Positions 9,192-45,322 of a stretch of 64,000 bases of DNA are shown here, piece after piece. The number at the start of each line of letters is the position of its first letter. The stretch's first letter is position 1. The DNA is from Bacteroidota bacterium. Its GTDB lineage: Bacteria > Bacteroidota > Bacteroidia > Bacteroidales > DTGW01. The stretch lies in the NCBI GenBank assembly GCA_029550865.1, contig JAKPGM010000006.1:9373-73372 (forward strand), in the 5' to 3' direction. Under the pieces are notes generated by a model. That model was not told the DNA's origin, did not search any database, and was given only the letters and a program-made list of their open reading frames with translations. The position numbers and the translations under genes are program-made.

Positions 9192-11300
9192 TTAGTTTAC
9201 AGTGGCTTTGCCTTTAATTTTTTCAAGTATATCCTTTTCAATAGCAGGTGGAACCTGTTGATAATGCGAGAATTCCATACTGCTAGTAGCACGACCCGAT
9301 GTTAGGGTTCGAAGTACTGTAACATAACCAAACTGTTCGGAAAGAGGCACTTTTGCGCGAACCACGCGTCCTCCGGCCTTCATTTCCATTCCTTCGATAG
9401 TACCACGACGCTTGTTCAAATCGCCTATGACATCCCCCATGTATTCCTCAGGGGTAACCACCTCGAGTTTCATAATGGGCTCAAGCAGGATGGGTTTGGC
9501 TTTAGCACAAGCCTCCTTAAATGCATTCTTAGCACATATTTCAAACGACAAAGAGTCGGAGTCGACGGGATGGTACGAACCATCAAGCAAAGTTACTTTG
9601 AGGCTATCCATGCTGTACCCTGCCAACACACCATTTGCCATAGCTTCACGAAATCCTTTTTCAACGGCAGGGATATATTCTTTGGGTACATTTCCACCCT
9701 TCACTTCGTTGATGAACTGCAAACCTGTAACACCGGGATCAGCAGGTTCGACACGTACCACAATGTCGGCATATTTACCACGACCACCCGTTTGCTTTTT
9801 AAACACCTCACGATGTTCAACCGGAATGGTAATAGCTTCCTTGTAAGCCACCTGAGGAGCCCCCTGGTTACATTCTACTTTGAATACACGGCGCAAACGA
9901 TCGAGGATAATTTCGAGATGAAGCTCGCCCATTCCGCTGATAATCGTTTGACCGGAGTCTTCGTCTATTTTTACCTTAAAGGTAGGATCTTCCTCAGCGA
10001 GCTTTGAGAGCGCCATGCCGAGTTTGTCGACATCGGCCTGAGTTTTGGGTTCCACAGCGACACCAATAACTGGTTCGGGGAAAGTCATTGATTCAAGCAC
10101 GATCGGATGTTTTTCATCGCATAGCGTATCGCCTGTACGAATATCTTTAAATCCAACGGCTGCACATATATCGCCTGCTTCGATGATATCCTTAGGATTT
10201 TGCTTATTGGCATGCATCTGGAACAAACGGGCGATACGTTCTTTTTTACCTGTACGGGTATTGAGTACGTATGAACCCGAAGTAATAGTTCCGGCATATA
10301 CGCGCAAGTAAGCCAGACGACCAACAAATGGGTCGGTCATAATCTTAAATGCCAATGCAGTAAGGGGCTCGTTTTCGTCGGGCTTACGCGTAACGATTTC
10401 ATTATTTTCGGGATTGGTACCCTGAATATCAGGCAAGTCGAGCGGGCTTGGTAAGTATGCTGCTACGGCATCGAGTAACTGTTGTACTCCCTTATTTTTA
10501 AAGGAAGCCCCACAAAGCATCGGAGTAATTTTCATTTCAATAGTAGCCTTACGAGCAGCCGCTTTTAGTTCTTCGACCGTGAGTGAATTTTTATCTTCGA
10601 AAAACTTTTCCAGCAAATTATCGTCGAGTTCGCAAATTGCTTCAAGAAGTTGATCGCGATAAGTATTAGCCGTTTCGCGCAAGTCTTCTGGGACATCAAC
10701 AATATGGAATCGTTCCCCTTTGGGGTCACTAGGATCGTAAATGTGAGCTTTGTTTTCAAACAAATCGACCACTCCTACAAATTTTTCTTCAGCTCCAATA
10801 GGAATCTGAAAAGGAATGGCATTAGCACCCAGACGATCACGAACTTGCTGAACTACTTCAAAAAAGTCGGCACCGGTACGGTCCATTTTGTTAACGAACC
10901 CAATTCGGGGCACATTATATTTGTTGGCCTGACGCCATACGGTTTCTGACTGAGGTTCAACACCACCAACAGCACAGAATAATGCAACAGCTCCATCGAG
11001 TACGCGCAATGAACGTTCTACTTCTACGGTAAAATCGACGTGCCCCGGAGTGTCGATGATGTTGATTTTATATTCTTGATTGTTGTATTTCCAGTAACAG
11101 GTAGTAGCAGCCGATGTGATAGTAATACCACGTTCCTGTTCCTGCACCATCCAGTCCATTGTGGCTGCCCCATCGTGTACCTCACCAATTTTATAATTTA
11201 CACCCGTGTAATATAGGATACGCTCGGTAGTAGTTGTTTTACCGGCGTCGATGTGAGCCATTATACCAATATTTCTGGTTAATCTAAGATCACGTGCCAT
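9192..11300 (-). CDS. fusA: Translation elongation factor G
   Basis: 702-aa ORF with [24 protein letters not shown] and DTPGHVDF GTPase motifs. It lies between rpsG and rpsJ. Confidence 0.98.
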
Positions 11301-36755: not shown

Positions 36756-37532
36756 ATGTCAACTTTCTTGTTCGAGGGCATTGTATTTGGACCGATAAAA
36801 AGTCGTCGGTTAGGTAATTCTCTGGGGATTAATCTTTTGCCAGAGGGGAAAAAAATATGCAATTTTAATTGTATTTATTGTGAATGTGGCTGGAACTCTG
36901 AAGAAAACAACAATCTGCAATGGCCTTCTATTGAAGCTATCAGCAACCAGCTAACCGATAAAATACAGGAACTTATTCGACAAGAAACAAAAGTCGATAC
37001 CATCACTTTTGCCGGAAACGGTGAACCTACGATGCATCCTTTATTTCCCGAAATTATTGATACGGTCATTCATATTCGAAATGTTTTATTACCAGAGGCT
37101 AAAATTGCTGTTTTATCGAACGCCACATTAATTTTTAAACCTAATATTCAGCAGGCTTTAAAAAAAATAGAATTAAATATCTTAAAACTCGATTCAGCCA
37201 TTGAATCAACCATTAGGTTGCTTAATCAACCAACTGGCTATTTCAACTTACGGGACACGATTGAACAGCTGAAAACATTTGGCAACCATTGTATAATTCA
37301 AACCATGTTTGTACGGGGATACTATAATCATCAGGCTTTTGACAATACTACTCCCGAAGAGTTGCAGGCATGGCTTCGGGTCATTAAGGAAATTAATCCC
37401 GCCTTTGTAATGATTTACACCATTGCCCGTGATACTCCAGCCGAACAAATATACCAGGTAAGCGCCGAAGAATTACAAAAAATTGCCGCCATGGTCGAAA
37501 AGGAAGGGATAAAAGTAAGTATTTCGGCATAA
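36756..37532 (+). CDS. Radical SAM protein (small, function unassigned)
   Basis: 258-aa ORF with the CNFNCIYCECG CxxxCxxC motif after FGPIKSRRLGNSLGINLLP, and a GNGEPTMHP SAM-binding motif. It is too short and too different for HydE/HydG, and unlike QueE. Confidence 0.8.
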   Translation: MSTFLFEGIVFGPIKSRRLGNSLGINLLPEGKKICNFNCIYCECGWNSEENNNLQWPSIEAISNQLTDKIQELIRQETKVDTITFAGNGEPTMHPLFPEIIDTVIHIRNVLLPEAKIAVLSNATLIFKPNIQQALKKIELNILKLDSAIESTIRLLNQPTGYFNLRDTIEQLKTFGNHCIIQTMFVRGYYNHQAFDNTTPEELQAWLRVIKEINPAFVMIYTIARDTPAEQIYQVSAEELQKIAAMVEKEGIKVSISA

Positions 37533-37597
37533 AAATAGTAGGATAACTTATCGTTCGTTATCCTTCAAAAAACTTGTATTCACATTTACCAATTACG

Positions 37598-37605
37598 TAC
37601 CTTTG
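37598..37605 (+). promoter_or_regulatory. Candidate -7 box (TACCTTTG) for hydF
   Basis: TAccTTTG lies 19 nt upstream of the ATG at 37625. It is preceded by an 8-bp hairpin AGGATAAC/GTTATCCT (37540-37564) that may terminate the radical SAM transcript. Confidence 0.4.
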
Positions 37606-37624
37606 CAGTTTTATTGAAAAAACC

Positions 37625-38827
37625 ATGGCAAGAGAAGTAACACCACACATAGGGATATTTGGACGCAGGAATAATGGAAAAAGTTCATTGATTAATGCCA
37701 TTGCGGGACACGACGTAGCCATCGTATCGGATATTGCAGGTACCACCACCGATCCAGTAAAAAAGTCGGTCGAAATCTTTGGAATAGGTCCAGCCATATT
37801 TGTCGACACAGCCGGTATCGACGATGAAGGCGATCTGGGTGAGAAACGTATCAAAAAGACACTTCAGGCTATTCAGCATATCGATTTTGCTATATTGGTA
37901 ATTACTGCAAATACCTTCGATAGTTTTGAAAAACGTCTGGTAGACGAATTTCGCAAATACGATGTTCCCTATCTTATTGCCCATAACAAGAATGATTTAA
38001 CCCCTCTGTCCGAAAACACCAAACAAGAGTTGCAACAACAATATGGAAGTCTTGCAGTAGTGCCCACCAGTACTTTTGACAATCAATCTATCAAGCAACT
38101 CATTGAAGCAATACAGCGTCATATGCCCGAAACGGCATGGAAAAAAAAGTCCATCATTGGGGATCTCATACAAGCAGGCGATTTGGTATTGTTGATTGTG
38201 CCTATTGATAATGAAGCCCCGGAAGGCCGACTGATATTGCCTCAGGTACAACTCATCCGTGATGTACTGGATAATCATGCCATTGCCATAGTGCTTAAGG
38301 AAACAGAAGTAGAAAGCTTTTTTAATAACCACCATATCAAGCCCCGACTGGCTATTACCGATAGTTCCATCTTCAAAAAAGCCGACAAACTTGTGCCAAA
38401 AGAAATCCCCCTCACGGGGTTTAGCGTGGTACTTGCTCGGCATAAGGGACCATTCGAGGCATTTATGGATGGAACTTATCAACTTTCGAAGTTGAAAGAC
38501 GGGGATCGGGTTCTGATTCTGGAATCGTGTACACATCAGGTAACCTGTGAAGATATTGGAAGATTTAAGTTGCCTCGATGGATTTCTGAGTTTACCGGTA
38601 AAAAATTGACATTTGACGTAGTTTCAGGGCTTGGTTCTATTCCAGAAAAAGTTTCAGACTATGCCTTAGTAATACAATGTGGTGCCTGTATGATTACCTC
38701 GCGTCAGGTGCACAGCCGAATGAAAAAATTCATTGAAGCGGGAATTCCTATCACCAATTATGGCCTGGCTATTGCCTACATGCATGGCGTATTTGAACGA
38801 GCCATTGCCCCTTTTCGGCGTCAATAA
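37625..38827 (+). CDS. hydF: [FeFe]-hydrogenase H-cluster maturation GTPase HydF
   Basis: The track ORF begins at TTG 37574; ATG 37625 gives MAREVTPHIGIFGRRNNGKSSLINAIAGHDVAIVSDIAGTTTDPV. This is colinear with my memory of Thermotoga HydF (GRRNVGKSS...VSDYAGTTTDPV, PKGRLIMPQV, ITDSQ, EGCTH, HCGGC, TNYGV..YLHGVLERAI.PF). Here the motifs are G1 GRRNNGKSS, G3 DTAG, G4 NKND, and cluster Cys motifs ESCTHQ and QCGAC. Confidence 0.88.
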   Translation: MAREVTPHIGIFGRRNNGKSSLINAIAGHDVAIVSDIAGTTTDPVKKSVEIFGIGPAIFVDTAGIDDEGDLGEKRIKKTLQAIQHIDFAILVITANTFDSFEKRLVDEFRKYDVPYLIAHNKNDLTPLSENTKQELQQQYGSLAVVPTSTFDNQSIKQLIEAIQRHMPETAWKKKSIIGDLIQAGDLVLLIVPIDNEAPEGRLILPQVQLIRDVLDNHAIAIVLKETEVESFFNNHHIKPRLAITDSSIFKKADKLVPKEIPLTGFSVVLARHKGPFEAFMDGTYQLSKLKDGDRVLILESCTHQVTCEDIGRFKLPRWISEFTGKKLTFDVVSGLGSIPEKVSDYALVIQCGACMITSRQVHSRMKKFIEAGIPITNYGLAIAYMHGVFERAIAPFRRQ

Positions 38828-38895: not shown

Positions 38896-40167
38896 TTATT
38901 GTTGTCGCATCAGCTTACGATTAAGCTTTTTTATAGCGTTAAGTACCGATTCTTCGGGCACGATGATGTTATAATCGCCCCAAAATTCATCGTTTCGAAA
39001 ATCTTCAACTCTTTCCGAAAAAATTTCAGAAGGTTTAAAAGCTTCGGCGGCTTTAATTTTTTCGACGTTGTTGTAGTCGACATCGGTAACTGCCATCTCG
39101 GTGGTAATGATGTAATTTGAGCTAAAGAGTCGTTTCGGCCATTTGCACTTGAATGCCAGTTCGGAACGGGTATAGGCCAACTGCCACAAATCACCCGATT
39201 TGTTATATTTCACAAAGTAATTTGCTCGCAGGATATCTATCTTCATGGTAGCAGGTTTCTTCTTCACGTAGGTGGAAGTTGCATAAGGCAAGCCATATTC
39301 ACTTACGCTAAATTCAGCAGCTACAAAAGCCAGATTGTTGACATCGATGTAGAACTTCCCCTCGTATAATGGCAGATTTACATCTTTTCGCTGCTTAAAC
39401 TCCACCACGTAACACCGAATATCATCAAGCGAAATTTGTCCCGTAAGCCTCAAAGTGTACTGGTTGAAAAAGCTTTCGTTGATAAGATTGTCGGGATTTT
39501 TAGCAATATCGATGTAAAAAGGCAGTATGGGTCCCCCTTGAAACTTAACCACTATGGTATCCATTCTCTTAACATCCTGACTTTTTCGCCCAATCAACAC
39601 TTTAACCTTATCGTTCAAAAAATAGTTGTTGTAAGGCGACTTGTATGTCTCAAGAACAGCTTCAGCTACCGACACATAGCGTTTATTTTGTTGAATGGTT
39701 TCGCGGTAAAATCCATTTACCATAGCCGGTTTTCGGCTGTAATTTTTACCAATATTGCTCAAGGCACCCTTGATAATCAGCTCAGGATCCTCGACCCGGA
39801 CAATAATTTCCTGCAAAGAAACCACCTCGGGTTTGAGCACAATTACATTTCCCGTAGTTTTTAAATCACTACGATCAAAAAATACCGACTTATATCCCAG
39901 ATGAGAAAAACCTATCCTATTTCCATTAGCGTTAGGGACTTTCAGCATAAATTCACCCTCAGCATTGGCTACCGTTCCAATGTTTGTTCCTTCAACAAAC
40001 ACCGATGCATACATAATTGGTGATCGGGTTTCAGCATCGATAATTTTGCCCTGGTATATAGCTACCTGAGCACTGTCGCGCGCTGCTTGAACCCCTACTG
40101 TGCTTCCCACGAGAATGAGTAATACTACGATTGCCCATTTCCCTATGTTACCAAAATGTGTTTTCAT
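38896..40167 (-). CDS. Carboxypeptidase-regulatory-like domain protein (exported, function unknown)
   Basis: 423-aa ORF with a signal peptide (WAIVVLLILVGSTVGVQA) and the CarboxypepD_reg pattern YQGKIIDAETRSPIMYASVFVEGTNIGTVANAEGEFMLKV. Confidence 0.75.
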   Translation of the reverse strand: MKTHFGNIGKWAIVVLLILVGSTVGVQAARDSAQVAIYQGKIIDAETRSPIMYASVFVEGTNIGTVANAEGEFMLKVPNANGNRIGFSHLGYKSVFFDRSDLKTTGNVIVLKPEVVSLQEIIVRVEDPELIIKGALSNIGKNYSRKPAMVNGFYRETIQQNKRYVSVAEAVLETYKSPYNNYFLNDKVKVLIGRKSQDVKRMDTIVVKFQGGPILPFYIDIAKNPDNLINESFFNQYTLRLTGQISLDDIRCYVVEFKQRKDVNLPLYEGKFYIDVNNLAFVAAEFSVSEYGLPYATSTYVKKKPATMKIDILRANYFVKYNKSGDLWQLAYTRSELAFKCKWPKRLFSSNYIITTEMAVTDVDYNNVEKIKAAEAFKPSEIFSERVEDFRNDEFWGDYNIIVPEESVLNAIKKLNRKLMRQQ

Positions 40168-40253
40168 AATTTTAAATTTTTATTGTTTTTCCGAAGCGCT
40201 TCCTTTTGTTTTTATAACAATTAAAAAAATACTTACCCCTAAGCATTTTTATG

Positions 40254-40261
40254 TATTTTTG
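40254..40261 (+). promoter_or_regulatory. Candidate -7 box (TATTTTTG) heading the queD / queF-like / hydS / PP2C gene string
   Basis: TAttTTTG lies 22 nt upstream of the queD ATG (40284). I found no comparable box in the 3-15 nt gaps downstream. Confidence 0.45.
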
Positions 40262-40283
40262 TTACAAAAAATTATAGTCATAG

Positions 40284-40700
40284 ATGAAGTATACCGTACG
40301 CAAGACATTAACCTTTGAGGCAGCTCATCGACTTTTAAAGGACTATTCTGGAAAATGCACGAATAATCATGGTCATTCGTGGGTGGTAGATATTGAGCTG
40401 GAAGCTGAACAGCTTGATGAAAGAGGAATGGTAGTCGATTTTAATGAATTGAAAAGACTGAAACAATGGATCGACGACACACTCGACCATACTACCATTT
40501 TGTGGGAGAAAGATCCCATGTGCGAATACATTCGTCAAAGTCAGCAACGACTGTATGTTACGCAAGAAAATCCAACATCCGAGGTTATTGCGCGGATAAT
40601 TTTTGAAAAAGCGCAGGAAATGTTTGCCAACGACCGTGTGAAAATATCGTCGGTAGCCGTTCACGAAACCTGCACTTCAAGAGCAGTATACAAAATATAG
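40284..40700 (+). CDS. queD: 6-carboxy-5,6,7,8-tetrahydropterin synthase (QueD / PTPS family)
   Basis: 138-aa ORF with TFEAAHRL, the Cx3HGH motif (KCTNNHGHSW), VVDFNELK and NPTSE, colinear with E. coli QueD as I recall it. Confidence 0.82.
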   Translation: MKYTVRKTLTFEAAHRLLKDYSGKCTNNHGHSWVVDIELEAEQLDERGMVVDFNELKRLKQWIDDTLDHTTILWEKDPMCEYIRQSQQRLYVTQENPTSEVIARIIFEKAQEMFANDRVKISSVAVHETCTSRAVYKI

Positions 40701-40703
40701 CCT

Positions 40704-41078
40704 ATGGAATTCAAATATTTAGGAAAACGCACCACTCAACCCAGCAAAACGCTCGATACTTTTCCGACCCCAGCTGCAGTTACCTATGTAAAGTTTGAAT
40801 CGGACGAGCTTACCAGCTTTTGTCCTGTAACCGGTCAGCCCGATTTTAGCAAAGTAATTATCGAATATGCGCCGGAGCAACTTTGTATCGAGAGCAAAAG
40901 TTTAAAGCTTTACCTTTGGTCGTTTCGCGAGGAAGCTATTTTTGCCGAAGGACTGGCGGGTCGTATTGCCGAAGACATATTTTCCGCCACTGCTGCCCGA
41001 TGGGTAAAGGTTACCATTATTCAAAATGTACGGGGTGGCATTCAGTTAACGGCTGTGGCTGAAAAACATAAACCTTAA
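40704..41078 (+). CDS. queF: QueF-like protein (short, divergent NADPH-dependent 7-cyano-7-deazaguanine reductase homolog)
   Basis: 124-aa ORF. It keeps the catalytic Cys context (TSFCPVTGQPDF) and the QueF motif ESKSLKLYLWSF. The canonical FRNHG.FHE stretch reads FREEAIFAEG. Confidence 0.65.
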   Translation: MEFKYLGKRTTQPSKTLDTFPTPAAVTYVKFESDELTSFCPVTGQPDFSKVIIEYAPEQLCIESKSLKLYLWSFREEAIFAEGLAGRIAEDIFSATAARWVKVTIIQNVRGGIQLTAVAEKHKP

Positions 41079-41092
41079 AGATTTAAAACTGA

Positions 41093-42958
41093 TTGCCTTT
41101 GGAACCGCTAATCCGCATATCAAAAGAGAAATGTAAGGTTTGTTATGCTTGTGTTCGGGCTTGTCCGGTAAAAGCCATTCGGGTAACCGGTTCCGACCAT
41201 ACACCTCAAATCGACCCCGACCGGTGCATTAGCTGTGGCAGTTGTGTGCGGATTTGTAAATTTCAAGCTATCGACTACCTACAGCACTGGCAACAGGTCA
41301 AACAGATCCTCGATGAAGGCACACCAGTAATTGGCATCCTCGACCCAAGCTATGTTGCAGAATTCAGCGAGTTGCCCGATTACCGTAAGCTCATCGGCAT
41401 GTTGTATTATATCGGCTTCAAAAAAATTTACGATACCAGTTTTGCCGTTGACCTGCTTGCCTATCACTATAAAAACTTGCTTGATACCTTTAAAGGAAAA
41501 CACTATTTATTGGCCAACTGCCCTGTAGTTGTTGCATACGTTGAAAAATTTGTCCCTGCTGCACTAAATAATTTAGCACCGTTGGTCACCCCTATGACGG
41601 CTATGTCGCGATTGATAAAACAGACAGTTGACCAAAACAATACCCTGGTATACATCACCCCATGCATTGCTGCCAAAGAAGAAGTGAGGTTACAGGGCGA
41701 CACAGCGGCCATAAATTTTGTGTTGACCTTTGAGGAACTGCGCAGACTATTTGCCTCCTACCAGGTTACTGATAAAATGATAGAATTTGGCGAAATTGAA
41801 TCTCCTGCCGGTGCTATGGGATATTTATATCCTATCAGTAACGGCATAGTTCAAGCCGCTCAACTTTCGGAAGCATTGCTCGACAATCAAATCATTACAG
41901 GTCAGGGTGAACAGATGATGATGGGCTATCTTAAAGAATTCGAGCAACACAGCGATATCATCGGATGCCATTTCAACCTTTTTTACTGCAGGGGATGTAT
42001 CGACGGTCCGGGTATGACATGCAAGCACCATCATCTGGTACGACGTTCGCTTGTTATCCAGCATGCCCGTCAAATGTGCGAACCAAAAGCTATATCTAAC
42101 GTTCAGCGTACTATTCAAGACTACCTTTCGCTCGATGTATCGCGTACCTTTCACGACCATTACAAGCCTCCCTATCAACCCAGCGAACAACAAATCAGGG
42201 AAATACTGCTGGCTACAGGTAAGCAGGAAAACGAAAATGAAATCGACTGTCGGGCATGCGGTTACGATTCGTGTAAGGACTTTGCCATTGCTGTTGCACA
42301 GGGCATTACCACCCCCGATATGTGTATAACCTTCTCGTTGCAAAATCAACGCAATTACACCCATGCGCTTAAGGTTACCAACGAAAAACTGGCTCGTATG
42401 CAGGAGGCACTGATTGAATCGGAGAAGAAGATGCGCATGGAACAGGAATTGGCTCGCGAAGCCTCGGAGATGCTAACCGCCATGTTCCAGAAGTTGCGTG
42501 CAGGCATCGTAATTTTTGACAATCATTTAAAAATCATCCATTCCAATCAAAGTTTTGTATCAATACTGGGTGAGGAAGCCGCACAGATTAACGAAGTGGT
42601 TCCTGGTTTGATAGGTGCCGACTTAAGGACTCTTCTTCCTAAAGAATTTATTCCGCTCGCCAGCTATGTACTGGAGCACAACGAAGAAATTTTAAATAAA
42701 GATATCACCACCGACGATGGATTCTTAAATATCAGCATCTTTCCTATTAAAAATAAAAAAATTGCAGGTGCCATCCTACGCGATCCCTATCAGCCCGACG
42801 TTCGAAAGGAAGAAATTATTAGTCGACTCAACGAAGTTATCAATCGTCATCTCGATCGAGTGCAAAAAATTGGATATCTGTTGGGCGAAGGTGCCGCCGA
42901 AACCGAACGAATGCTCAATGCCATCATTCAAACTTTTAAAAGCAAGGACGAAAAGTGA
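41093..42958 (+). CDS. hydS: HydS-type putative sensory [FeFe]-hydrogenase (2x[4Fe-4S] - H-cluster domain - Cx2Cx4Cx16C - PAS)
   Basis: 621-aa ORF with a TTG start directly after an in-frame TGA. It has two ferredoxin motifs (CKVCYACVRACP; CISCGSCVRICK). H-cluster motifs are P1 LANCP (Cys143), P2 TPCIAAKEE (Cys191) and P3 FYCRGCIDGPG (Cys299/302). An extra motif is C386-x2-C389-x4-C394-x16-C411. The C-terminal part is PAS-like (LRAGIVIFDNHLKIIHSNQSFVSILG...). Confidence 0.85.
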   Translation: MPLEPLIRISKEKCKVCYACVRACPVKAIRVTGSDHTPQIDPDRCISCGSCVRICKFQAIDYLQHWQQVKQILDEGTPVIGILDPSYVAEFSELPDYRKLIGMLYYIGFKKIYDTSFAVDLLAYHYKNLLDTFKGKHYLLANCPVVVAYVEKFVPAALNNLAPLVTPMTAMSRLIKQTVDQNNTLVYITPCIAAKEEVRLQGDTAAINFVLTFEELRRLFASYQVTDKMIEFGEIESPAGAMGYLYPISNGIVQAAQLSEALLDNQIITGQGEQMMMGYLKEFEQHSDIIGCHFNLFYCRGCIDGPGMTCKHHHLVRRSLVIQHARQMCEPKAISNVQRTIQDYLSLDVSRTFHDHYKPPYQPSEQQIREILLATGKQENENEIDCRACGYDSCKDFAIAVAQGITTPDMCITFSLQNQRNYTHALKVTNEKLARMQEALIESEKKMRMEQELAREASEMLTAMFQKLRAGIVIFDNHLKIIHSNQSFVSILGEEAAQINEVVPGLIGADLRTLLPKEFIPLASYVLEHNEEILNKDITTDDGFLNISIFPIKNKKIAGAILRDPYQPDVRKEEIISRLNEVINRHLDRVQKIGYLLGEGAAETERMLNAIIQTFKSKDEK

Positions 42959-44139
42959 ACAGACGCTTTTACCTCGATGTCAGTTGCCGTCAAAATCCCT
43001 GCCATGGCGAACGGGTGTGTGGTGATGTGTATCTGGCGCATAATTTTGTGGCCGAGGATCGAAATATCATTGTTCTTTCCGATGGTTTGGGGCACGGTGT
43101 AAAAGCCAACATGTTGGGAATCCTTACCACTACTATGGCGCTCAACTTTACGCACGAACACAAGGAAACAAATCGTATTGCCGAAACCATCCTGCGTACC
43201 CTCCCCGTCGACAGCGAGAAACAAATTAGTTTTGCCACCTTCTCCATTGTCGACATCGAAACAGATGGGCAGGTAAACATCATAGAATACGAAAATCCCC
43301 AGTGTCTTGTGCTCAGAGGAACGGAGGTTTTTTCCCCCGAATGGACATGCCTGCTCCTCGACATAGACCGAAAAATAGGCAAAGAGCTTAAAACCTGTTC
43401 TTTTCAGGCGCAGCTCAATGATCGCATCGTTCTTTTTACCGATGGCGTGATACAGGCAGGCATGGGAAGTCGTTCGGCCCCTATGGGATGGGGGTTAGAA
43501 CAGGTACATCAGTTTGTAGCCGATCAGGTTCGCAAAAATCCCTCCATCGACTCGTCCGAACTGGCCTATAAGGTGGTTTCCGAAGCCATCAAGAAAGATG
43601 GTTTCGAAGCTAAAGATGACACCAGTTGTGTAGTAATATATTTTCGCCACCCCCGGCAACTGCTTATCTGTACAGGGCCTCCGTCATCGGTCGAAAAAGA
43701 TGCTGACATGGCGCAAAAAGTTAAGAATTTTCCAGGCCGAAAAATCATCTGCGGCGGCATTACGGGTACCATCATTGCCCGTGAATTAAATCTAACCATC
43801 GACGAAAACGCTATCGTAAGCGATCCAGAACTACCCCCGATGAATAAGATGGAAGGGGTAGACCTGCTTACCGAAGGAATAATCACGCTGAATAAGGTGC
43901 ATAAAATTCTGGAAAATTATAACAGCAATTACCCCCTGACGCAGGGTCCTGCCGACCAAATTGTACAGCTCCTGCTCGAAAGCGATGATATCCACTTTCT
44001 GGTTGGAACAGCCATTAATACTGCCCATCAAGATGTATCCCTGCCTGTAGAACTTGAAATTCGTAGAACAGTAGTGCGACGTATCATGCGAACCCTCGAA
44101 GAAAAATTTCTAAAACATGTGAGCGTAGAATTTATGTAG
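42955..44139 (+). CDS. SpoIIE/PP2C-family serine phosphatase with uncharacterised ~165-aa C-terminal domain
   Basis: 394-aa ORF whose GTG start overlaps the hydS stop (GTGA). It shows the PP2C/SpoIIE pattern GERVCGDVYLAH...IIVLSDGLGHGVKANM...DRIVLFTDGV...DDTSCVVIYF. I do not recognise residues ~230-394. Confidence 0.8.
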   Translation: MNRRFYLDVSCRQNPCHGERVCGDVYLAHNFVAEDRNIIVLSDGLGHGVKANMLGILTTTMALNFTHEHKETNRIAETILRTLPVDSEKQISFATFSIVDIETDGQVNIIEYENPQCLVLRGTEVFSPEWTCLLLDIDRKIGKELKTCSFQAQLNDRIVLFTDGVIQAGMGSRSAPMGWGLEQVHQFVADQVRKNPSIDSSELAYKVVSEAIKKDGFEAKDDTSCVVIYFRHPRQLLICTGPPSSVEKDADMAQKVKNFPGRKIICGGITGTIIARELNLTIDENAIVSDPELPPMNKMEGVDLLTEGIITLNKVHKILENYNSNYPLTQGPADQIVQLLLESDDIHFLVGTAINTAHQDVSLPVELEIRRTVVRRIMRTLEEKFLKHVSVEFM

Positions 44140-44325
44140 CATAACGTACACAACAGAAAAACAACACTCAGCCAAATTGTTCAATCCAGACACCCTTTCA
44201 CACTTTTGCGTAGTAATGAAGTAGTAATTGAAGGCTCATGTGGTATTTTTGTGTGCCCGCTCATTTATTCAATGCATGCTATTTCGTGGCAACTTTGCGC
44301 ATACATCGTTAAAATCTATTGTGCT

Positions 44326-45189
44326 ATGAAAAATTTGATGCTTACACTTTGCGCAGTAATCCTGTTAGTATTTTCAGCAAATTCGCAGGAAGTTACCAGT
44401 AACTATTATGGGATTTTTACCGATAATCCCAATATTTTGGTGCGTTTACCCATTGACGACGTTCGGGGACACATTTATGTGTGGGAAAATACATTATCGG
44501 GACTAATCACCGACCCATACGAAGGCGAGGGATGCTTAGCCTTTCGTTCAACTGGAGTAGGTTGGTGGGGATTTGGCATACACGATGATAGCGCTGTGTC
44601 GCTTAGCCATTTTCAATCGGGATTTCTTATTTTCTCAGTAAAAACATCGGCAAAGGACGAATTTTCCATTCATGTATACGGTGCCAATAAAACCGAGGCC
44701 AAAATAGTCTTTCCACAGAATGGTGGTCCCCAGAACTTCAAGCGCAATGGTGAATGGCAAAAGATTACTTTCCCCATCGCCGATCTGGTTGCCCAGGGAC
44801 TCGATTTATCCTCGGTACCAATTCCATTTGCAGCTATAGGCGGTAATATATCCAATATTGCATTCGACGATATTTTTTATTCCGTCGACAGTGCAGGTCC
44901 CAATAATCCTGTAGCTCATCCGCAACCCAAACCAGTTGATAATACAAATGTAAAAACACAGGAAATTCCCGCTCAGGTTAGCTTAAGCAGAGGAACATTA
45001 AATATTTCTGCTTCCATGCCAATTAGCAAAATTACTGTAACAGACATAACCGGTAAAATCATGGTAAACAACCACCCCCGTCAATACAGCTTGACCCTGG
45101 ATGTAGCAAAATGGGTAAAAGGAATCTACCTGATAACAATCTATAGTAACACAGGGAAAGTTTTTACAGAAAAAATACTAATCCAATAA
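44326..45189 (+). CDS. T9SS-sorted secreted protein (type A C-terminal sorting domain), N-domain unknown
   Basis: The track ORF starts at 44206; the likely start is MKNLMLTLCAVILLVFSANSQ at 44326. The C-terminal ~70 aa (LNISASMPISKITVTDITGKIMVNNH...VAKWVKGIYLITIYSNTGKVFTEKILIQ) has the Por_Secre_tail pattern. Confidence 0.75.
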   Translation: MKNLMLTLCAVILLVFSANSQEVTSNYYGIFTDNPNILVRLPIDDVRGHIYVWENTLSGLITDPYEGEGCLAFRSTGVGWWGFGIHDDSAVSLSHFQSGFLIFSVKTSAKDEFSIHVYGANKTEAKIVFPQNGGPQNFKRNGEWQKITFPIADLVAQGLDLSSVPIPFAAIGGNISNIAFDDIFYSVDSAGPNNPVAHPQPKPVDNTNVKTQEIPAQVSLSRGTLNISASMPISKITVTDITGKIMVNNHPRQYSLTLDVAKWVKGIYLITIYSNTGKVFTEKILIQ

Positions 45190-45249: not shown

Positions 45250-45250
45250 G

Positions 45251-45322
45251 TAGCCCCGCCAGGAATCGAACCTGGATTTAAAGTTTAGGAAACTTCCGTT
45301 CTATCCGTTGAACTACAGGGCC
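45251..45322 (-). tRNA. tRNA-Arg (anticodon CCT)
   Basis: The reverse complement is GGCCCTG-TA-GTTC-AACGGATA-GAAC-G-GAAGT-TTCCTAA-ACTTT-AAAT-CCAGG-TTCGATT-CCTGG-CGGGGCT-A. It folds as a 72-nt cloverleaf with anticodon CCT. Confidence 0.9.

Follow-up and report, generated by a model that had tools for sequence, protein, structure and literature searches.

We analysed a stretch of 64,000 nucleotides (nt) of the Bacteroidales contig JAKPGM010000006.1, referred to below as the window. In this window, two genes of queuosine synthesis, queD and queF, are followed on the same strand by hydS, encoding a putative H2-sensing [FeFe] hydrogenase, and by a gene encoding a PP2C/SpoIIE-type serine phosphatase (PP2C). 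The most probable explanation of this four-gene block is that two ordinary modules were fused once, in a single lineage, and that hydS-PP2C thereby captured the promoter of queD (rough probability 0.68). As judged from the sequences, all parts belong to known families and are ordinary in them, and their order is shared by one clade. Each half of the block has an orthologous module in sister lineages, where the two are found apart, so that a single ancestral rearrangement is the simplest account. The initial annotation, made from the nucleotide sequence of the window, had proposed three readings of the block: an H2-regulated tRNA modification pathway, a QueD/QueF pair making a ligand for the sensor, or accidental juxtaposition. 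The last of these fits best, but in a modified form: the restriction of the block to a single clade and the separate modules in the outgroup point to one ancestral operon fusion that was inherited thereafter.

The adjacency was surveyed in Bacteroidota-like relatives, whose loci were examined by translated searches. A scan for relatives of HydS, with one genome per species, yielded 80 loci, of which only one (L001) had queD-queF beside hydS; this locus, from a close relative, shared 13 genes with the window in colinear order. Four other loci with queD-queF-hydS (L081, L082, L083 and L090) were obtained when intermediate relatives were looked up. A metagenome scan with a single HydS protein returned two loci, a fragment of 1.2 kb and a locus (L087) that also carried the three genes. 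In total, the clade census comprises seven loci with queD-queF-hydS, and PP2C was present in all six that could be evaluated. The seven are monophyletic in a neighbour-joining tree of HydS, with 55-82% identity to the HydS protein of the window. No que gene was found within 8 kb of hydS in any of the 79 genome loci outside the clade, nor in the outgroup loci L089 and L091. The adjacency did not recur in independent lineages, as all seven loci belong to one clade, and on this distribution it has a single evolutionary origin. Hence, the block is not unique to the genome of the window, as it is shared by seven clade loci, but the approximately 80 hydS-PP2C loci outside the clade have no que neighbour.

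The genes on either side of the block vary within the clade. The upstream side is occupied by hydF with a divergent CarbopepD_reg gene, by an ABC transporter with a CarbopepD_reg gene, or by yidC. Downstream we found a gene with a type IX secretion system (T9SS) tail, tRNA-Arg with a beta-lactamase-like gene, a sigma-70 gene with rhomboids, or acyltransferases.

Outside the clade, the two modules occur in contexts of their own. With L001 set aside, 76 of the 79 loci carried a full-length hydS-PP2C pair; the pair was lacking in four of the 80 loci, two of which lie beside a contig end. A divergent operon of a bifurcating hydrogenase, hydC (NuoE-like)-hydB (NuoF-like)-hydA, lies opposite hydS-PP2C in 62 of 79 outgroup loci, whereas these three genes were found neither in the 64-kb window nor in the clade flanks. 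The closest relatives of QueF outside the clade are encoded by the last gene of a queC-queE-queD-queF operon (L084, L085) or of queE-queD-queF (L086). Both modules apparently occur on one chromosome of 4,466,598 bp, which carries the queCEDF operon L084 and, at a separate position, the hydS-PP2C locus L004. The que operon L085 and the outgroup hydS locus L089 stem from one and the same sequencing run.

Two other features of the outgroup hydS loci were observed. Further genes often follow in the hydABC operon, one for another HydS-like protein with a fused histidine kinase (approximately 665 amino acids, aa) and one for a stand-alone receiver protein, so that two different putative H2 sensors flank one bifurcating hydrogenase (e.g. 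L006:1098-7999 and L089:3171-7730). At L091:6275-6937, a gene for a Rex-like redox repressor (Put_DNA-bind_N and CoA_binding domains) is divergent from hydS-PP2C, with hydABC 3.7 kb downstream; a Rex gene presumably accompanies hydS in Ruminococcus albus too.

The four open reading frames (ORFs) were located on the forward strand at the positions given by the initial annotation: queD at 40284-40700 (138 aa), queF at 40704-41078 (124 aa), hydS at 41099-42958 (619 aa) and PP2C at 42955-44139 (394 aa, GTG start). When re-measured, the gap between queD and queF was again 3 nt. The gap of 14 nt reported between queF and hydS holds for the first TTG codon at 41093. However, the second TTG, at 41099, is the start kept in relatives and used for an identical database protein (P0001, 619 aa), which makes the gap 20 nt. 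The context of this start, TTG-GAA-CC, was conserved among the clade relatives that we compared. The gaps between queF and hydS ranged from -1 to approximately 22 nt in six inspected clade loci, and in the seventh, L090, the genes as called are 12 nt apart. The GTGA overlap of hydS and PP2C is indeed present at 42955-42958, and it was found in every evaluable clade locus. PP2C starts with GTG in the clade versus ATG in 57 of 68 outgroup loci; by this comparison, the GTG start overlapping the hydS stop is a derived tightening in the clade. In the corresponding comparison of hydS starts between clade and outgroup, the N-termini varied. Tight conserved spacing, translational coupling of hydS and PP2C, one conserved promoter, and the lack of space outside queF for a promoter of hydS all support the description of the block as an apparent operon, and the four genes are probably on one transcript.

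A pattern search confirmed that a single TAnnTTTG box, TATTTTTG at 40254-40261, precedes queD. In an alignment of seven loci, this -7 box forms the end of a promoter block on the forward strand (40223-40261), in which an A-rich run with ATACTTACCCCTAAG is followed by approximately 10 nt and the box itself. The 39-nt block, AAAAAAATACTTACCCCTAAG-N10-TATTTTTG, was kept in six of the seven related loci and partly in the seventh, and it was retained in L087 despite a different upstream gene. The box ahead of queD is thus more than a chance match. A canonical TTTG element at -33 is absent from the block. Where this Bacteroidetes element would be expected, at 40223-40243, lies the conserved element AAAAAAATACTTACCCCTAAG, kept in six of seven clade loci. 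The block was not found upstream of hydS in 78 outgroup loci, and a pattern search of all loci gave no close match in three outgroup que operons, which indicates that it is specific to the clade. Searches with Rfam at permissive E-values gave no riboswitch or leader RNA ahead of queD in the window region, three clade loci and two canonical que operons. In the same divergent intergenic region, a perfect 10-bp palindrome, GAAGCGCTTC at 40193-40202, was kept in the window, L001, L081 and L090.

Transcription of hydS and PP2C could instead start within queF. In that case the four genes would not form one operon, hydS-PP2C being transcribed mainly from an internal promoter, and the adjacency would be without regulatory consequence. 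The initial annotation saw neither a -7 box nor a hairpin in the junctions; they are indeed free of -7 boxes, and no terminator-like hairpin was found on the forward strand anywhere in 40254-44139. Inside queF, however, there are two matches to TAnnTTTG, at 40911 and 40937, with the first TTG of hydS (41093) lying 156-182 nt downstream of them, and the queF gene of each relative contains at least one such match. Yet the positions of these boxes differ among relatives (87, 208, 234 or 273 nt into queF), and the boxes coincide with codons for conserved residues. Furthermore, an outgroup queF without hydS behind it carries TAnnTTTG at the homologous site, and the motif is frequent in the window anyway, with approximately one match per 1.3 kb per strand. 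By contrast, the promoter upstream of queD is conserved as a block. We therefore consider an internal promoter unlikely. As the gap of approximately 20 nt leaves no room for a promoter outside queF, and queF has no conserved internal -7 box, hydS-PP2C is most likely read from the queD promoter.

The proteins of the first module were compared with their families. QueD, a 6-carboxytetrahydropterin synthase, matched PF01242 with 119.7 bits (E 9e-35) and narrowly passed the equivalog cutoff of TIGR03367 (92.4 bits, cutoff 89.25). Its best match among solved structures was 7v0f, in one contiguous alignment, while E. coli QueD aligned in two pieces. The entry is labelled only as a 6-carboxytetrahydropterin synthase; we take it to be the 'low-zinc' paralogue QueD2 of A. 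baumannii. The motif K-C25-T-N-N-H-G-H of the window protein has the pattern CxxxHGH, which is the signature of type I 6-pyruvoyltetrahydropterin synthase homologues (PTPS-I), whereas CxxxxxHGH and ExxHGH are those of PTPS-II and PTPS-III (PMC5041015). The residue after the cysteine is Thr rather than Glu, and hence QueD is not a PTPS-I/III hybrid. It is 64-69% identical to QueD of canonical queCEDF operons, and it clusters with que genes, adjoining queF here and sitting in queC-queE-queD-queF in its orthologues.

QueF, a unimodular synthase of 7-aminomethyl-7-deazaguanine (preQ1), i.e., an NADPH-dependent 7-cyano-7-deazaguanine (preQ0) reductase, passed the cutoff of TIGR03139 (109.2 bits, cutoff 86.9) and is 70-77% identical to QueF of canonical operons. 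In the alignment to B. subtilis QueF (4f8b), Cys40, Asp47 and E63-SKSLKLYLW were retained. The two residues are the catalytic ones of the family, and E(S/L)K(S/A)hK(L/Y)(Y/F/W) is the QueF motif. At the position of B. subtilis His96 (F-H-E), a residue usually described as catalytic, the window protein has Ala (F-A-E). The same Ala occurs in all 15 of the 124-aa Bacteroidota QueF proteins aligned, members of canonical queCEDF operons included; it is therefore a lineage trait that is uninformative on this locus. We looked for a clade-specific change in the active site of QueF and found none in comparison with QueF of canonical operons. Overall, the sequence comparisons (64-77% identity) identify QueD and QueF as plain orthologues of canonical queCEDF genes.

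These properties bear on the proposal that QueD and QueF make a pterin or deazapurine that is bound by the putative PAS domain of HydS or by the phosphatase. Only the adjacency itself speaks for the proposal, and no ligand is known for the putative PAS domain or the C-terminal phosphatase domain. QueD converts 7,8-dihydroneopterin triphosphate (H2NTP) to 6-carboxytetrahydropterin (CPH4) and QueF reduces preQ0 to preQ1; these are steps 1 and 4 of a four-step pathway, in which QueE and QueC act in between. Because QueE and QueC are needed between the CPH4 of QueD and the preQ0 reduction by QueF, the pair makes nothing alone, which argues against a dedicated ligand pathway. Moreover, both enzymes keep the motifs of their families as orthologues of queCEDF members, with nothing specific to the clade in QueF, and HydS and the phosphatase have the same architecture and length in approximately 80 species that lack the adjacency. 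Two ordinary orthologues for the first and fourth steps only thus make this reading very improbable.

HydS, the first protein of the second module, contains two Fer4 domains, an Fe_hyd_lg_C domain, a PF04060 domain and a weak PAS match. The N-terminal 2x[4Fe-4S] region matched Fer4, Fer4_7 and Fer4_10 at residues 7-62, and the H-domain matched the full profile of PF02906 over residues 79-306. The H-cluster cysteines are Cys143 (NCP), Cys191 (TPC), and Cys299 and Cys302 (FYCRGC), and Cys143, Cys191 and Cys302 were invariant among 19 homologues. In the L1 motif, L-A-N-C-P, Asn replaces the proton-relay cysteine, i.e., the first Cys of TSCCP. Loss of this cysteine (C299 in CpI) is a criterion of group C hydrogenases (PMC8163306). 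A C-terminal Cx2Cx4Cx16C motif is present in exact form (C386-x2-C389-x4-C394-x16-C411), with all four cysteines invariant in homologues, and it falls within the PF04060 match at residues 384-412. The matches to PAS_9 (E 5.6e-4, residues 471-564) and PAS_8 (E 4e-3) are both below the Pfam gathering cutoffs; homologues of HydS carry precomputed PAS matches. In sequence, HydS fits the published description of a group C (M2f) sensory hydrogenase and is a putative sensor.

The phosphatase matched PF07228 (SpoIIE) with 64.8 bits. In its AlphaFold2 (AF2) model, with a pLDDT score (predicted local distance difference test) of 87, the first 230 residues superposed best on SpoIIE, RsbU-type proteins and RsbX (Foldseek E 4e-15 to 2e-10, target template-modelling score 0.72-0.76), including SpoIIE 5mqh (E 3.6e-15). 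The metal-binding Asp motifs GD, DGxGHG, DG and DD (D24, D43-G44, D163-G164 and D221-D222) are invariant. The model thus assigns the protein to the PPM fold of the SpoIIE/RsbU type. Behind this fold lies a strongly conserved C-terminal domain of approximately 160 aa (residues 235-394 approximately; 43657-44139), in which many residues are invariant when 29 homologues are compared. This domain had no Pfam family and no sequence match in the PDB; the sole fold match of the confident AF2 model, methylglyoxal-synthase-like 1vmd, was weak (E 0.016). No STAS or anti-sigma partner was named in a general annotation of part of the window, in which no search was aimed at such genes. In the outgroup locus L004, which belongs to a metagenome-assembled genome with a complete chromosome, the translated match of the phosphatase frame (9860-11041) contains one in-frame stop, which may be a sequencing error or mark a pseudogene.

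A functional explanation would be that the operon couples H2 or redox sensing to the synthesis of queuosine precursors, with preQ1 and queuosine in tRNA tracking the partial pressure of H2. The output of HydS-PP2C might, for example, feed back through a partner-switching sigma/anti-sigma system on the conserved non-canonical promoter. This is consistent with the persistence of the four-gene block and its unusual promoter down to 55% HydS identity while both flanks change, with the partner-switching type of the phosphatase, and with the presence of hydF upstream in four of six evaluable clade loci. Its basis in evolution, however, is a single origin with no recurrence in approximately 80 other species. 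The operon holds only two non-consecutive que steps, with no queC or queE nearby, and junctions as short as these are expected to persist without selection. Moreover, no report linking queuosine genes to [FeFe] hydrogenases was found in the papers searched, in agreement with the earlier statement that no link of HydS-PP2C to preQ0/preQ1 chemistry is known. H2-regulated tRNA modification as a reading of the block depends on a single event in evolution and on a conserved promoter element that is unexplained, and we regard it as rather unlikely. Included in this assessment is a specific form, in which HydS and the phosphatase control their own operon promoter (ATACTTACCCC-N15-TATTTTTG) through a partner-switching sigma system, so that queuosine synthesis, wobble modification and translation respond to H2; this form is doubtful enough to be called improbable.

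Several points weigh against a mere fusion. The conserved, non-canonical element upstream of queD could mean specific regulation. The block has survived several rearrangements of its neighbourhood, which is also expected under selection for co-expression. We infer co-transcription of the four genes from their spacing only. Finally, no queC, queE or second copy of queD-queF was found in the 64-kb window or the clade flanks, to which this search was confined. Persistence of the block nevertheless says little about function, for two reasons. The junctions (3, 20 and -4 nt) offer a neutral breakpoint target of approximately 23 nt, compared with flanks of hundreds of nt, and the sensor genes would be silenced if the block were broken.

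The fusion that we favour can be outlined as follows. The ancestor of the clade would have had a canonical queC-queE-queD-queF operon for preQ1 and, separately, hydS-PP2C facing hydC-hydB-hydA. One rearrangement, whose direction we infer from the outgroup contexts, would have placed hydS-PP2C approximately 20 nt behind queF, and in the process the pair would have lost its own upstream region. Since then, hydS and PP2C would have been transcribed by read-through from the queD promoter, and translated from weak TTG and GTG starts, with the start of PP2C coupled to the stop of hydS. QueD and QueF would keep their housekeeping roles for queuosine in tRNA. HydF and its partner maturases would build the H-cluster of HydS. 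Via this cluster, the C-terminal [4Fe-4S] cluster and the putative PAS domain, HydS may signal H2 to the phosphatase of the SpoIIE/RsbU type, which would then dephosphorylate a target; what HydS-PP2C controls has, to our knowledge, not been established for any group C sensor. The block would persist through its short junctions and the dependence of the sensor on the captured promoter, rather than through an interaction of deazapurines with H2 sensing.

The surroundings of the block in the window were also annotated. The H-cluster maturation GTPase gene hydF (37574-38827, forward strand) lies two genes upstream of queD, outside the presumed transcript, and its product matched TIGR03918 with 494 bits (cutoff 326). 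Since the profile match does not start before residue 23 of the ORF as listed, and ATG (MAREVTPH...) occurs in frame at approximately 37625, hydF probably starts at this ATG rather than at the TTG at 37574. Directly upstream of hydF, at 36756-37532, a radical S-adenosylmethionine (SAM) protein of 258 aa is encoded, which is 77% identical in L001. It has no NCBIfam equivalog, with a viperin-like family as its best match (43 bits, cutoff 180). Profile and similarity searches gave no evidence that it is HydE, HydG or QueE; considered as a hidden QueE, it showed no similarity to QueE of L084-L086 at E < 1e-3. Between hydF and queD, on the reverse strand (38896-40167), lies a divergent gene for a CarbopepD_reg_2 domain protein (PF13715) with a signal-like N-terminus, which shares its intergenic region with the queD promoter. 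This gene is present in six of the seven clade loci and absent in L087. Downstream of the block, the window has a tRNA-Arg(CCT) gene on the reverse strand at 45250-45322, and the phosphatase gene of L087 is directly followed by a tRNA of equal Rfam score (11121-11192). Because of this arrangement, the gene with the T9SS tail (44206-45189) appears to have been inserted in the lineage of the window and L001.

If the association is only positional, the block offers a worked example of how a housekeeping operon splits, a regulatory module captures a foreign promoter, and tight junctions preserve the gene order. It would also caution against inferring function from one conserved adjacency. Furthermore, it flags a Bacteroidales clade whose putative H2 sensor, encoded near hydF, is not coupled to hydABC, a natural experiment on what HydS-PP2C controls. 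If co-regulation were true, the block would provide the first known case in which H2 sensing is linked to tRNA modification.

Comparison with known systems places each part of the block. HydS-type sensors are known beside catalytic hydrogenases, or with a serine phosphatase in hfsABCD (PMC11837493, PMC8163306). TmHydS of Thermotoga maritima (group C/M2f) shares with HydS of the window the 2x[4Fe-4S] region, the four H-cluster cysteines, the loss of Cys299, and the Cx2Cx4Cx16C motif, which precedes a PAS domain in TmHydS and a PAS-like region in the window protein (PMC8163306, PMC13104023). In contrast to TmHydS, the window protein is known from sequence only, its host belongs to the Bacteroidales, and its gene is found behind queD-queF instead of beside a group A hydrogenase. 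In hfsABCD of Thermoanaerobacterium, the PAS-hydrogenase HfsB is similarly encoded beside the serine phosphatase HfsC, and in hydS-hydA2 of Ruminococcus albus a HydS-type gene adjoins the hydrogenase that it is thought to regulate (PMC11837493). A catalytic hydrogenase, HfsD or HydA2, is part of each of these operons, whereas the operon in the window contains two queuosine genes and no catalytic hydrogenase. The phosphatase resembles the partner-switching phosphatases SpoIIE, RsbU and RsbX in its fold and its invariant GD, DGxGHG, DG and DD motifs, but adds a conserved 160-aa C-terminal domain without a Pfam family.

The two modules can also be compared with their usual counterparts. The usual hydS-PP2C locus of Bacteroidales has the same gene order and similar products (approximately 619 and 394 aa; HydS 43-52% and phosphatase 48-66% identical), but there the pair has an upstream region of its own (approximately 250-300 nt, as measured in L089 only) and the phosphatase mostly starts with ATG. 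The canonical queCEDF operon of Bacteroidota likewise has a 138-aa PTPS-I QueD followed by a 124-aa QueF, with 64-77% identity. Compared with this operon, the clade of the window lacks queC and queE upstream, has a different promoter block, and carries hydS-PP2C after queF.

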